This document shows, piece after piece, positions 36,293 through 48,200 of a stretch of 64,000 nt of DNA. The notes below the pieces were generated by a model. It saw only the letters and a program-made list of their open reading frames with translations. It was not told the DNA's origin and searched no databases. Origin of the DNA: Octopus vulgaris (Eukaryota); assembly GCA_951406725.2 (NCBI GenBank), contig OX597823.1:34472001-34536000 (forward strand), in the 5' to 3' direction. A program made the position numbers and the translations under genes. The stretch's first letter is position 1. Every line of letters begins with the position of its first letter.

Positions 36293-39200
36293 TCATCTTT
36301 GTGGAATGTTTTCAAAATCTTGGTAATCGTACATGTCACTAGGAACCAAATCCTGAATATTATGGCCTTTATCACTATCAGATGATTGTTTTCTTAAAAT
36401 GGTGGGTCGAAAGTGAACAGTTAACTTTACACGAGAATGGTATTTTGTGATTGGTTGGGTATTTAAAAATGAATTTTTCCAACCTTTCTTTTTCCATTTT
36501 CTATGCTTTGTCTGATGCTTAGATTTTGTGTAAGGGTAATTGTCAATATAAACATCATTGCTCACAGACTTTTCAAGATTGTTATTAGAATCGATTGCAT
36601 GGAATGGTTTTGATTTCTGCCTGTCCTCTCTCTCAGGCTTTGAATCCTTTACTTCATCAACAAAGGTAGAACTTGAAATCTTCTGGTTATTACCTGGTCT
36701 ATAATCTTCTGGATTAATACCAGAGGCAGAGTTAGATTCAAGATCATCACCAGAAGCAGAGTTAGAATCAAAGTCATCATCATCATCATTAGAAGAGCTG
36801 GGGTTGAGATTATTCCCAGAGGCAGAACTATAATCTGTATCATCAACAAGTGTTAAACTAGATGCTGAACTACTAGGTGAGGATTTTCTAGGGTCAGGTT
36901 TCCTGTATAGACTATGAATTAAGGAATAACTCGATCCTGATTTATTCCTATTAGCAGGAATAGAGTTATTGAATACAGATATTGATGCTGAAGTAGTTGT
37001 AGGAGAAATTAATGTGGAATTTTGATTATTTTCAGGAGATTTAATAGAATTGTCTGAAACTGAATTGGAACCTGGTTTTTCACCTTTCAGTGAAGAGATA
37101 CCTGCATATCCACCTGATGGAGAAGGAGTATCTGGGTAATGTCCAGAACCATAGTTGGAATGTAAATTTTCTCCAGATGCAGAACTGGAATCCATATCCT
37201 CACCAGAGGCAGAATTAGACTCCATATCCATACCAGAGGCTGAATTTGTGTCCATATCATCTCCAGATGCAGATCTCAAGTCAGTATAAGCTTTGGATAT
37301 TGAAGAAGACGATGCAATATTTTGGGTGATTGAAGCAGAAAAATCATCAATGTTAAGTGTAGTGTTTGTGTTTAAAGTATCTTCTGGAGTGAAAGTAATA
37401 TGTGGTGAGACTCCAGAAGTTCGGAGAGAACTACTTAAAGCTGAAGTAAGATGTGGTGCTGCTAAAATGGTAGAAGAAGAATCTGGAAATGTTTTTGGAG
37501 AAAAACTAAAAAGTTTGTAACTACTTTGTATTGGTGTGGAGTATGAACTTGTAACAGGGGTGTGAGTTGAACCAGGGAATATTTTAGGGGGTATTGTTGA
37601 TGAGATGTCACTGTTTATGACGGATGGAGGACGTGGAGTTGTAAGAGAAAGAAATTTATATATTGTAGAAGATTTTATAGGGTGAGAAGTAGAACTTGAA
37701 GATATTTTGGCTTCATGAAGATTTTCATAACTTAATGATTCTTCCTTAGAACCAGAACTAGACTTCAAGTCATCCTCAGAATCAGTACTTGCTTCCAGGT
37801 CATCCCCTGAATCAGTGCTAGATTCCTGGTCATCCTCAGTGTCAGAACTTGATTCTAGATCATTTCCAGAGGAAGAACTAGGATCTAAATCTTTTTCAGA
37901 AATTGTGGATGTGAGTTCACTGTTTACAACAGATGCAGGATGTGGAGTTGTAACAGAAAGAAATTTATATTTTGTGGGAGATTTTGTAGAATGAGAAGAG
38001 AATGAAGTTATTCTGGATTCCGGATAATTTACAGACATTGAACTGGAGAGAATAACATCTCCAGAGACAGAACTGGGGCCATAATTATATTTAGAGATAG
38101 AATTGGAATGAAGATAATTCTCTGATGACCTAATATGAGTTTCTGAGAATCTTTTGGAGGGAATAGCAACTGTTGTGTCAGTGTGTGACTGCAGGTTACC
38201 TCGAGAGTTAGAGCTAGACTCTAGATAGTCCCCAGAATTAGTACTTGACTCCAAGTCATCCTCTGAGTCAGAGCTTGATTCTAGATCATCCCCAGAGGAA
38301 GAGCTAGATTCTGAATCATCTTCTGTGCTAGAGCTAGATTCCTCTTTATCATCAATTTCCAAATGGGATGGAGAACTAGTTGTTTCAACAGAAACAGATT
38401 TACTGTTGATATAAACACTAGGTGTGTTGATATAATTACTGACAACTGAAGAATATTGAGTAACACTATTAATTGATTGATATAATATAGAACTAGTAAT
38501 GTGGTAACTATTTGAAACTGGGGTAGGTTTGGGCATTTTAGGTGGTATTGTTGATGTGATGTCACTGTTTATAACAGATGTAGGATGTGGAATTGTAAGA
38601 GAAAGGAATTTATATGTTGTGGGAGATTTTGTTGATTGAGAAGTTGAGCTTGAAGGCATTCTGGTTTCACGAAGATTTCCATAACTGGAACTAGAAACAG
38701 ACTTAAGCCGTGAAATATAACTAGAATGAAGGTAACTCAGTGATGATCTAACACGAGATTCTGCGACTTTCTCTGAAGAAGTGGTAACTTTTATAGGAAA
38801 TTTTGATTTTAAATTTAGTTCAGTATCAGAACTAGATTTTATCTCTTCTCTAGAACCAGAACTAGACTTCAAATCATCCTCAGACTCAGTACTAGCTTCC
38901 AGGTCATCCCCTGAATCAGTGCTAGATTCCTGGTCCTCCTCAGTGTCAGAGCTTGATTCTAGATCATTGCCAGAGGAAGAACTGGGATCTAAATCTTTTT
39001 CAGAAATTGTGGATGTGATGTCACTGTTTACAACAGATGCAGGATGTGGAGTTGTAACAGAAAGAAATTTATATTTTGTGGGAGATTTTGTAGAATGAGA
39101 AGAGAATGAAGTTATTCTGGATTCCGGATAATTTACAGACATTGAACTGGAGAGAATAACATCTCCAGAGACAGAACTGGGGCCATAATTATATTTAGAG

Positions 39201-45200: not shown

Positions 45201-48200
45201 CTATTAATTGATTGACGTGATACAGAACTAGTCATTAAGTAACTATTTGATATTGGAGTAGGGCTGGGTATTTTAGGTAAGATTGTTGATGTAGGTTGAC
45301 TATTTATTACAGATGTGGGAAGAAGAGTTGTAACAGAAAGAAATTTATGTTTTGTGGGAGATTTTGTAGAATGAGAAGAGAGTGAAGTTATTCTGGATTC
45401 CGGATAATTTACAGACATTGAACTGGAGAGAATAACATCTCCAGAGACAGAACTGGGGCCATAATTATATTTAGAGATAGAATTGGAATGAAGATAATTC
45501 CCTGATGACCTAATATGAGTTTCTGAGAATCTTTTGGAGGGAATAGCAACTGTTGTGTCAGTGTGTGACTGCAGGTTACCTCGAGAGTTAGAGCTAGACT
45601 CTAGATAGTCCCCAGAATTAGTACTTGACTCCAAGTCATCCTCTGAGTCAGAGCTTGATTCTAGATCATCCCCAGAGGAAGAGCTAGATTCTGAATCATC
45701 TTCTGTGCTAGAGCTAGATTCCTCTTTATCATCAATTTCCAAATGGGATGGAGAACTAGTTGTTTCAACAGAAACAGATTTACTGTTGATATAAACACTA
45801 GGTGTGTTGATATAATTACTGACAACTGAAGAATATTGAGTAACACTATTAATTGATTGATATAATATAGAACTAGTAATGTGGTAACTATTTGAAACTG
45901 GGGTAGGTTTGGGCATTTTAGGTGGTATTGTTGATGTGATGTCACTGTTTATAACAGATGTAGGATGTGGAATTGTAAGAGAAAGGAATTTATATGTTGT
46001 GGGAGATTTTGTTGATTGAGAAGTTGAGCTTGAAGGCATTCTGGTTTCACGAAGATTTCCATAACTGGAACTAGAAACAGACTTAAGCCGTGAAATATAA
46101 CTAGAATGAAGGTAACTCAGTGATGATCTAACACGAGATTCTGCGACTTTCTCTGAAGAAGTGGTAACTTTTATAGGAAATTTTGATTTTAAATTTAGTT
46201 CAGTATCAGAACTAGATTTTATCTCTTCTCTGGAACCAGAACTAGACTTCAAATCATCCTCAGACTCAGTACTAGCTTCCAGGTCATCCCCTGAATCAGT
46301 GCTAGATTCCTGGTCCTCCTCAGTGTCAGAGCTTGATTCTAGATCATTGCCAGAGGAAGAACTGGGATCTAAATCTTTTACAGAACTTGTGGATGTGATG
46401 TCACTGTTTATAACAGATGTAGGATGTGGAGTTGTAAGAGAAAGGATTTTATATGATGTGGGAGATTTTGTTGATTGAGAAGTTGAGCTTGAAGGCATTC
46501 TGGCTTCACGATGATTGTCATAACTTGAGCTTGAACCAGACTTAAGCCGTGAAATATAACCAGAATGAAGGTGAATCATTGATGATTTAACATGAGATTC
46601 TGTGACTTTTTCTGAGGGAGTTACAACTTTTGTGGGAAATTTTGGTTCAGTGTCAGAACTAGATTTCAGCTCTTCTCTGGAACCAGAATTAGACTTCAAG
46701 TCATGCTCAGAGTCAGTGCTAGATTCAAGGTCATCCCCTAACTCAGTACTAGATTCCAGGTCATCCCTTGAATCAGTGCTAGATTCCTGGTCCTCCTCAG
46801 TGTCAGAGCTTGATTCTAGGTCATTGCCAGAGGAAGAACTAGAGGCTAAATCTTTTACAGAACTTGTGGATGTGATGTCACTGTTTATAATAGATGTAGG
46901 ATGTGGAGTTGTAAGAGAAAGAATTTTATATGTTGTGGGAGATTTTGTTGATTGAGAAGTTGAGCTTGAAGGCATTCCGGCTTCACGATGATTGTCATAA
47001 CTTGAGCTTGAACCAGACTTAAGCCGTGAAATATAACCAGAATGAAGGTGAATCTTTGATGATTTGACATGAGATTCTGTGACTTTTTCTGAGGGAGTTA
47101 CAACTTTTGTGGGAAATTTTGGTTCAGTGTCAGAACTAGATTTCAGCTCTTGTCCAGAACCAGAACTTGACTTCAAGTCATGCTCAGAGTCAGTGCTAGA
47201 TTCTAGGTCATCTTCAGTGTCAGAGCTGGATTCCAAGTCATCCCCAGATGAAGAACCAGACTCTGAATCATCTCCAATGCTAGAGCCAGATTCCTTTTCA
47301 TCATCAGATTCTTGAGATCTAGTATTGGTAAAGTGGCTAGACATTGTATTATTATAATTACGAATGACTGAAGAATAATGAGTAACACTTTCAATTGATT
47401 GATACAATGTAGAACTAGTAATGTGGTAACTATTTGAAACTGGGGTAGGTTTGGGCATTTTTGGTGGTGTTGTTGATGCGATGTCACTGTTTATGACAGA
47501 TGTAGGATGTGGAATTGTAAGAGAAAGGAATTTATCTGTTGTGGGGGATTTTGTGGATTGAGAAGTTGATATTGAAGGCATTGTGGTATCTGGATGATTT
47601 AAAGACATTGAGCTGGAGGCAAGGTATGAAACAGAACTGGATTCAGGGTGAAATCCAGTGGCTGAAGATACGCCAGAGTAGTCTTTATTTACTGAGCTAG
47701 AGTGATGATGATCTTTGGAAACTGAAATGGATTGAATAGAATTTGCAGAGGTTGAACCAGATTCAAGATCATCCCCAGATGTCGAACCAGATTCAAGATC
47801 ATCTCCAGATGTTGAACCAGATTCAAGATCATCTGCAGAGGATGAACTAGAGTCAGGATCATCTTCAGAATCTGAATTTGAGTCAAAATTATCTCCAGAA
47901 CCTGATCTAGAATCAAGGACATTCTGAGTGGATGTGGTTGAATCTAAAGGAGTGTGAGTGGTTAATATTGAGTGGAGATAATTTTGAAATGGTGCTGTAG
48001 AATTTAATTGGTTATGAAAAGGTAAACTAGATTCCTGATAATTTGCTGGTGTTATAGTTGTGTGTTTATAATTAGGAATGGTTGAAATGGTGTCTGTATG
48101 ATTGTGATGTTTAGGATTAGAATCTGTGGTACCCGTAGAAACTAATTTAATTCCTGTTGATTTCATTGGTTCACCAAGAACTGAAGAATTTTGCTCTTTC

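Follow-up and report, generated by a model that had tools for sequence, protein, structure and literature searches.

A repeat array of Octopus vulgaris lies in a giant open frame that probably forms the last coding exon of an HHIP-like gene

The repeat array found at positions 37740..47500 (minus strand) of the 64,000-nucleotide stretch of Octopus vulgaris DNA that we analysed (the window) is probably the middle of the giant terminal coding exon of an octopod HHIP-like gene, which would code for a long, secreted, proteoglycan-like isoform. With the splice donor at 48493 unused, translation would continue and yield a product of about 4,660 aa predicted to be secreted, in which the signal peptide, the HHIPL cysteine-rich domain and the beta-propeller are followed by ~4,090 aa of disordered tail and finally by a short basic stretch. 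Use of the same donor would instead give a tail-less form of 601 aa.

The gene in the window is Octopus vulgaris HHIP-like 1 (HHIPL), "HHIPL1" being the name given to it by the database. Six minus-strand exons matched the named O. vulgaris HHIPL protein P0001 by tblastn. The one at 61739..61917 codes for part of the beta-propeller (100% to P0001 aa 348-407; Pfam GSDH PF07995, E 2e-5; AG/GT sites) and is followed by coding exons at 60022..60165, 58374..58503, 56614..56756 and 51779..51860, the last one of the propeller, all of them recognized by tblastn to P0001 and by their splice sites. Earlier exons, coding for the signal peptide and the folate-receptor-like domain, are beyond the window end. 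The GSDH-type propeller is homologous to that of HHIP (P0001 against HHIP structures, E 2e-63). The folate-receptor-like cysteine-rich domain (PF03024) was found in the reference proteins P0001 and P0126, and a hydrophobic N-terminus, consistent with a signal peptide, was seen by eye in the matching reference proteins, both coded by exons outside the window. HHIP binds the Hedgehog zinc through an acidic loop; in the alignment with HHIP structures this acidic run is missing from the aligned loop of P0001. The sixth exon, of 71 nt (48493..48563, 100% to P0001 aa 573-597, junctions read), is common to the short and long forms, and directly after it there is a consensus GTGAGT donor that is used by the annotated short forms. 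The annotated 601-aa form ends in a tiny last coding exon at 29844..29860 (minus strand, junctions read), and its last intron (48492-29861, 18.6 kb) contains the giant ORF.

This ORF is a stop-free frame of 4,102 codons on the minus strand (36296-48601), confirming the 12.3-kb open frame described in the sequence-only reading, which had quoted plus-strand letters; the other five frames contain 161-636 stops each. It continues, in frame, the HHIPL exon starting at 48563. The terminal coding exon of the putative long form (36293..48563, minus strand), supported by the stop-free frame and by an Argonauta orthologue that reads through, would have 12,271 nt and 4,090 aa in a predicted protein of about 4,662 aa, with a TGA stop at 36293-36295 and an AATAAA at about 35715. 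The expression "giant exon", used in the earlier reading, applies to this unannotated read-through form only, since the annotated Octopus models treat the region as an intron and splice the ORF out. None of the four full-length Octopus models named HHIPL that we inspected (556-601 aa) has the tail, and no long Octopus protein appeared among the best 1,776 word-sharing candidates scored (2,256-7,179 aa). At both sides of the array the tail is unique: its start (47500..48492, minus strand), identified by comparison with Argonauta, contains no repeats, and its end (36296..37700, minus strand), identified by comparison with O. bimaculoides and Argonauta, has degenerate decamers with Ser-Gly and then a Lys/Arg-rich patch. 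No Pfam domain was found in the giant ORF, P0129 or P0130, including the C-terminal SRCR domain that only vertebrate HHIPL1 has, and Rfam gave 0 matches in the window. The ESM Atlas provided nothing usable for the last 235 aa of the tail, and the first 287 tail residues had only two matches in a 50%-representative library, both on low-complexity decamers. Within the open-access literature we found no paper on the HHIPL giant tail.

The gene model GAB1599380.1 of Argonauta hians (3,994 aa, annotated as "hypothetical") contains the HHIPL domains and a 3,420-aa tail in one single model. It reads through the donor point, with 30 of the 33 residues just after it identical to Octopus and no Met there from which a separate gene could start, in support of the long form. 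Identity between both genera is 82% over the core and 42% over both unique tail ends. The Argonauta tail is also open and similar to that of Octopus (3,420 vs 4,090 aa, alike in composition and with a common decamer core), but its repeat offsets are its own and differ from the Octopus ones. The 3' tail end of O. vulgaris is 90% identical to O. bimaculoides XP_052827340.1, a separate gene in RefSeq ("clumping factor A-like") whose accession adjoins that of the O. bimaculoides HHIPL, and the module order differs between the two species. Thus, the recurrent duplication and turnover proposed in the sequence-only reading holds between species, as seen in the Argonauta offsets and the O. bimaculoides module order. 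The length polymorphism among alleles that it also predicted is putative, the differences observed being those from one species to another. Among the best word-sharing candidates scored (1,776 and 8,000), none was a squid or cuttlefish protein with such a tail.

Within the array, 10-aa acidic Ser-rich units (a1 and a2) alternate with S/T/P/H-rich spacers (B, D and E), with an additional optional block C. The hierarchy goes from 30-nt units through modules of 150-215 aa to blocks of 1104, 1953 and 7380 nt, and both the 20-mer offsets and the block alignments bear out this nesting, already noticed from the letters. The 18 spacer modules are 103-287 aa apart (7 of the 17 spacings are 150-160 aa), with short arrays of 10-aa units between them. 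The 129 distinct 20-mer offsets (10,813 pair hits) are all multiples of 3, the top ones being 1953, 7380, 1104 and 450, with further ones at 477, 480, 462 and 459. However, this regularity is a consequence of an open frame whose shifted frames are full of stops, and we rejected it as a second, independent signal. The segment 39783-42116 is 98.0% identical over 2,334 nt to the sequence 1953 nt away, forming a tandem duplication of 651 aa (39783..44069, minus strand) with a core that is 99.6% identical (9 mismatches in about 2,025 nt, 0.44%). The block at 37902-39102 is repeated 7380 nt away at 45282..46482 (minus strand; 97.8% over 1,201 nt), with 2-3 mismatches in a core of about 1,000 nt (about 0.3%). 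In these youngest blocks the flanks hold most of the mismatches. The segment 37740-38378 is 97.3% identical over 639 nt to its copy at +1104, and the region 37740..39879 (minus strand) comprises this 1104-nt unit and then a 777-nt copy with the in-frame deletion of 327 nt that had been reported at ~39480. The change of offset from 1104 to 777 corroborates it: at about 39481 sequence matching 38378 is joined to sequence matching 38704, with a 2-nt microhomology at the junction. The tail probably grew by slippage of the 30-nt unit, later by modules and blocks undergoing unequal crossover or conversion, and lost sequence through occasional microhomology deletions.

The reading frame is under strong selection against stops and frameshifts. 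Among 508 minimum-spanning substitutions between copies we found no stops, whereas the neutral models that we tried predict 10-25. Gaps between copies were multiples of 3 in all 17 records, versus 5 of 56 when non-coding repeats of the window were taken as a control (records not fully de-duplicated). Together with the open orthologous tail of Argonauta, these counts support the purifying selection on the frame claimed previously. Selection on amino acids is weak, with omega about 0.6-0.8. In codon alignments covering 16 of the 18 spacers, 6 of the 8 C blocks, nine a1 copies and nine a2 copies (the ends of a1 being poorly aligned), the spacers gave an omega of 0.58, significantly below 1 (likelihood-ratio 8.4), and the other block types gave 0.78, 0.62 and 0.73 (likelihood-ratio 0.6, 3.6 and 0.8), so that three of the four types were not significant (GY+F). 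The NG86 dN/dS values (0.27-0.65) were set aside since this method ignores transition bias, and codon models gave higher values. In a spacer tree (32 rows, 57 columns) the 9 Argonauta rows fell on one side (support 94/83, not starred) and O. vulgaris was mixed with O. bimaculoides, the tree being too short for ordering events. Selection would then purge stops and frameshifts and keep the composition, constraining single residues only weakly.

The Octopus tail is composed of 27% Ser, 15% Asp+Glu, 9% Thr and 5% Pro (S+T 36%, P+T+S 41%); considering both genera, Ser is 24-27% and Asp+Glu 15-18%, and the net charge is -283 in Octopus and -385 in Argonauta. There is no transmembrane segment in the tail and no hydrophobic signal stretch in the ORF (max KD19 0.7). 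Ser-Gly occurs 109 times in the Octopus tail versus 42 in shuffles, and 60 of the 109 have at least two D/E nearby. The non-repetitive ends are also enriched (22 vs 8.8 shuffled in Octopus, 28 vs 9.9 in Argonauta; 0 of 2,000 shuffles as high), and of 20 Ser-Gly compared across the genera 13 were conserved, a higher share than the 32 of 120 for other Ser-X (p 0.0014). Such abundance of acidic-context Ser-Gly, enriched in the unique ends of both genera, is a feature of proteoglycan cores. Chondroitin sulfate sites with acidic residues near SG are reported in one source, in which GAG sites have no straightforward consensus for prediction (PMC5046109). In Argonauta the two acidic arrays of greatest length (215 and 290 aa) hold only three Ser-Gly apiece, indicating that the decamer arrays need no GAG sites. 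Most likely the tail would act outside the cell as a long polyanionic brush by which the HHIPL head is anchored or held at a distance in the matrix; it would carry Asp/Glu and probably glycosaminoglycan chains at acidic Ser-Gly, possibly also phosphoserine and O-glycans.

The secreted core is like that of HHIPL1 and HHIPL2 (folate-receptor-like cysteine-rich domain and GSDH-type propeller), and in all 14 other HHIPL homologues examined the same conserved Cys is followed by a tail of low complexity that is often basic. The Octopus tail differs in its length (about 4,090 aa vs 29-341 aa), acidity and Ser-Gly content (109 vs at most 1), and the gene differs from HHIPL1/2 in having no SRCR domain and an internal donor that yields the tail-less form. 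Mucins have PTS VNTR exons flanked by VWD/cystine-knot or SEA/transmembrane domains. The mucin comparison made in the sequence-only reading holds for a giant repeat exon with its frame kept, but only loosely, as the Octopus tail is dominated by Ser and acidic residues, rich in Ser-Gly, and without VWD, cystine-knot, SEA or transmembrane segments, and we rejected membership. Aggrecan is similar in having a single large exon with a repeat-built Ser-Gly domain that carries up to about 100 CS chains and whose repeat number varies from species to species and, as a polymorphism, among humans (PMC4648834). Its repeats are of 19 aa, unlike the nested Octopus repeats of up to 651 aa, and the Octopus GAG sites are putative. 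Lectican membership was also rejected, given that the tail has no link modules or C-type lectin G3 domain (no Pfam match), the head is that of HHIPL and there is no homology. In versican, skipping of the GAG exon resembles the switch between short and long HHIPL forms. That octopods convergently built an aggrecan-like giant proteoglycan from the last exon of an HHIP-like gene, with the donor switching between a small diffusible HHIPL and a matrix-bound one that bears dozens of GAG chains, is a tentative and on balance doubtful extension.

A real long form whose tail serves chiefly as an acidic phosphoprotein or as a matrix domain that binds calcium, instead of as a GAG carrier, is rather unlikely; the models for it would be DSPP, DMP1 and the molluscan acidic shell-matrix proteins. 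DSPP and DMP1 share a secreted, low-complexity terminal exon rich in Ser/Asp/Glu, S-x-x-D/E sites are more frequent than in shuffles of the Octopus tail (229 vs 162), and Argonauta, builder of a calcite eggcase, has arrays that are more acidic and contain almost no Gly. Nevertheless, SIBLING/DSPP-type phosphoproteins are characterized by S-x-E/DSS-rich tracts and RGD, whereas S-x-E, the Fam20C motif, is depleted in both genera (48 vs 76 shuffled in Octopus, 36 vs 64 in Argonauta), the Octopus tail has 5 DSS and no RGD and is fused to an HHIPL head, and the shell-less Octopus retains it. Besides, HHIP is unmentioned in the Argonauta eggcase proteome preprint (main text term search; its protein tables may still list it) and in one supplement of PMC9635652. 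It appears improbable that the tail serves as a disordered spacer evolving almost neutrally, in which only frame, length and conserved ends matter, the repeats being a by-product of recombination. The omega values not significantly below 1 in three of the four block types, the module order that changes freely from one species to another and the varied tails of the other HHIPL proteins would fit this, but two genera independently hold tails alike in length, composition and decamer core, Ser-Gly is preferentially conserved and the spacer omega is significantly below 1.

Two other readings concern the locus itself. A separate single-exon gene nested in an HHIPL intron could be suspected from the RefSeq "clumping factor A-like" gene of O. 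bimaculoides, which covers the 3' part, and from the Octopus HHIPL models that splice past the ORF. We consider it highly improbable, and rejected a stand-alone gene, because the frame joins the HHIPL exon and the best-conserved tail residues precede by about 110 codons the first Met (residue 146 of the ORF), which is not conserved in Argonauta; the ORF also lacks a hydrophobic signal stretch. A transposon was considered and rejected too. The chance that the youngest duplications (the 1953 pair and the 7380 block) are assembly artefacts, for example a duplicated haplotype, with a shorter true array, we regard as small. Their core divergence is below the 1.22% heterozygosity of the assembly, if the window comes from that assembly, but this was made with long ONT reads and purge_dups, as described in PMC10700109. 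Against such reads a 2-kb unit would be short, the blocks are nested and non-adjacent, and the independent Argonauta assembly has young blocks as well (270 aa at 93%). An artefact of this kind would leave the long ORF in place.

The growth of repeats with preservation of the frame in giant exons is already known in aggrecan, and also in mucins and DSPP, and the mechanism put forward in the sequence-only reading is by itself ordinary. The gene behind the repeats had been left unnamed there. The novelty lies in which gene carries the repeats, an HHIP-like gene that is conserved and has a probable 12-kb coding exon, open in two octopod genera and annotated as an intron or as a stray gene with a bacterial name in the Octopus models seen, an example of annotation hiding very large repeat exons. 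Its product is a candidate large proteoglycan or polyanion of the cephalopod matrix, joined to a head that may bind Hedgehog. Human HHIPL1 is a secreted protein that binds SHH (PMC6686954), and for invertebrate HHIP-like proteins PMC9695228 gives no demonstrated role in Hedgehog signalling or SHH binding. If these proposals are true, the aggrecan-like HHIPL form could serve cephalopod cartilage or gelatinous connective tissue as a core protein, and the long HHIPL could be a matrix tether for Hedgehog.

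Six-frame translation of the window gives a single very long open frame of 4,102 codons on the minus strand (36296-48601), with 161-636 stops per frame in the remaining five, and this giant repeat ORF is a real feature. Its product is rich in Ser (26.6%), Thr (9.1%), Asp (7.9%), Glu (7.0%) and Pro (5.1%). The gene that contains it belongs to the HHIP-like (HHIPL) family: minus-strand exons upstream of the ORF match Pfam GSDH and named HHIP-like proteins, and six segments matched the O. vulgaris protein CAI9728909.1 (P0001, 601 aa) with canonical splice sites, at 61917-61739, 60165-60022, 58503-58374, 56756-56614, 51860-51779 and 48563-48493, the last being the start of the giant ORF. 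At the site where P0001 and the O. sinensis proteins differ, the window encodes the residue of P0001, which makes O. vulgaris its probable source. In the annotation of P0001 a GTGAGT donor after 48493 is followed by a 17-nt final coding exon at 29860. Two O. sinensis HHIPL models use this donor but differ in their last exons, whereas the one from O. bimaculoides terminates early. In the Octopus models examined, the giant ORF therefore falls within the last intron. The O. bimaculoides model XP_052827341.1 (556 aa) apparently skips the exon at 51.8 kb and reads the 48563 exon in another frame, possibly due to an assembly gap or misannotation.

In the surroundings, a protein disulfide isomerase gene is convergent with HHIPL; its last exon lies at 24212-24673 on the plus strand (thioredoxin domain E 4e-28, KDEL-like tetrapeptide end). 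For the X2 ending of O. sinensis, the leading candidate acceptor is at ~21591 (minus strand) and has a strong pyrimidine tract, besides five weaker ones; if it is used, the HHIPL transcript would run antisense across that exon. The intron holding the giant ORF also contains broken reading-frame fragments (31900-33750, minus strand) that resemble a decayed LINE reverse transcriptase, with no Pfam match for the six fragments tried. A short dispersed repeat at 52850-54930, in several copies including a 184-nt tandem pair (54532-54927), is probably a SINE-type element.

A putative long form produced by read-through of the donor is supported by other octopods. Among 1,776 scored candidates (proteins of 2,256-7,179 aa), ORF residues 13-480 had a single match, A. 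hians GAB1599380.1 (3,994 aa), a predicted gene record with both HHIPL domains, 82% identical to P0001 across residues 1-597 and then continuing into a 3,420-aa tail. The first 33 residues past the donor are identical at 30 positions between Octopus and Argonauta, and each of the two unique tail ends shows 42% identity. The first Met of the giant ORF, residue 146, lies downstream of these 33 residues and is absent from Argonauta; they are therefore translatable only from the HHIPL exon. The C-terminal 483 aa of the ORF had one match among 8,000 candidates, O. bimaculoides XP_052827340.1 ("clumping factor A-like", 90% identical), whose accession adjoins that of the HHIPL of this species; a 1,159-aa model in the same cluster has its modules in a different order. 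The predicted length of the long form is 4,662 aa, and a repetitive mRNA of 14 kb would easily be missed by annotation. Directly past the donor (48400-48492, minus strand) there is a Cys pair nine residues apart, kept in Argonauta, that may form a small disulfide loop unique to the long form. A 16-nt tandem repeat (35948-36057, 6.9 copies) lies in its presumed 3' UTR.

The repeats described by the sequence-only reading were all recovered: the 1953-nt repeat (98.0% over 2,334 nt), the 7380-nt-spaced block (97.8% over 1,201 nt), the 1104-nt repeat (97.3% over 639 nt) and the module offsets of 450, 477 and 480 nt, together with others of 459 and 462 nt. The 327-nt deletion is found at ~39481, where the offset changes from 1104 to 777 with 2 nt of microhomology. 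All 129 distinct 20-mer offsets within the ORF are multiples of 3, as had been claimed, but this follows from the frame being open and is no separate evidence. The array grammar is a S/T/P/H-rich spacer (variants B, D and E; 18 in total), an optional block C and an array of 10-aa acidic units, and within the repeated part a paralogous copy exists for 81% of ORF positions. The proposed purifying selection on the frame is supported: by a minimum-spanning count the copies differ by 508 substitutions (177 synonymous, 331 non-synonymous), none of them a stop, against 10-25 expected under eight neutral mutation models scaled to all substitutions. The ORF was chosen for its openness, and the open tail of Argonauta is an independent case. 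In DNA-level alignments all 17 inter-copy gap records are of 3, 12, 27 or 30 nt, versus 5 of 56 in multiples of 3 (and 28 of 1 nt) in non-coding repeats of the window, although the records are non-independent events and the control may contain sequencing errors. Residue-level constraint on the repeat copies is weak. For spacers (16 of 18 in the codon alignment) GY+F omega was 0.58 (LRT 8.4 vs omega 1; MGK 0.61), for block C (6 of 8) 0.78 (LRT 0.6; MGK 0.82), and for the two acidic unit types 0.62 (a1; LRT 3.6, MGK 0.42) and 0.73 (a2; LRT 0.8, MGK 0.32).

The ends of the large duplications fade into homologous modules of lower identity, as expected under unequal crossover or conversion. Judging from the junctions, the large blocks would have grown by either process, and the 327-nt deletion has only microhomology. 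Core divergence is only 0.44% for the 1953 block and ~0.3% for the 7380 block, and because this is below the heterozygosity of the O. vulgaris assembly (1.22% in the available text of PMC10700109) both could be assembly artefacts; the same text describes an assembly built with long reads, and we consider such an origin improbable. Growth within the array also differs among lineages. The top offsets are 784, 1457 and 2157 aa in Argonauta versus 651, 2460 and 368 aa in the window, and Argonauta spacers separate from Octopus spacers in the tree with moderate support, so that expansion or homogenisation of the array took place in each lineage separately. O. bimaculoides, which split from O. vulgaris ~34 My ago (as reported in PMC10700109), differs from the window in module order and has two in-frame indels near the 3' end, one of 8 and one of 32 aa, although a collapsed assembly may underlie its model.

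The HHIPL head has a signal peptide. The tail has no hydrophobic segment and a net charge of -283; at the end it bears a basic patch common to Octopus and Argonauta. This Lys/Arg/Trp patch and the acidic Tyr-containing end that follows it (36300-36550, minus strand), both kept in Argonauta, we take to be candidate polyanion-binding and tyrosine-sulfation sites. The tail contains 109 Ser-Gly, versus 42 in shuffles, and two or more acidic residues lie close to 60 of the 109. Because repeat copies inflate this count, the unique ends were considered alone, and there Octopus has 22 (vs 8.8) and Argonauta 28 (vs 9.9), with none of 2,000 shuffles as high. Ser-Gly is kept between genera at 13/20 sites versus 32/120 for other Ser-X (p 0.0014), and the Gly after Ser at 15/20 versus 7/17 for other Gly (p 0.05). 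The mark reported for chondroitin sulfate sites is a single SG near acidic residues, with no firm consensus (PMC5046109, in part). The two longest acidic arrays of Argonauta have only 3 SG each, which counts against a pure GAG role, and in the tails of both species S-x-E is depleted and S-x-x-D/E enriched. The tail is probably a polyanionic brush, with charge from Asp/Glu and GAG, perhaps also phosphate, in proportions that probably differ by lineage, a reading that fits both genera.

Human HHIPL1 is described as secreted and SHH-binding (PMC6686954), while according to the available text of PMC9695228 invertebrate HHIP-like genes have no demonstrated Hedgehog-related role; the octopus HHIPL core lacks the acidic loop of HHIP. 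The giant exon has a functional likeness to the large repeat exon of aggrecan (as portrayed in PMC4648834), but by domain tests the long form is no member of the lecticans, mucins or SIBLING proteins, and in 14 other HHIPL homologues the tail measures 29-341 aa and contains no more than one Ser-Gly. Nothing on the giant-ORF locus was found in the accessible parts of the literature on octopus or cephalopod HHIP-like genes, nor any mention of HHIP in the searched parts of two Argonauta papers. The repeat mechanics are ordinary, and the interest of the locus lies in a putative hidden giant isoform kept across octopod genera.
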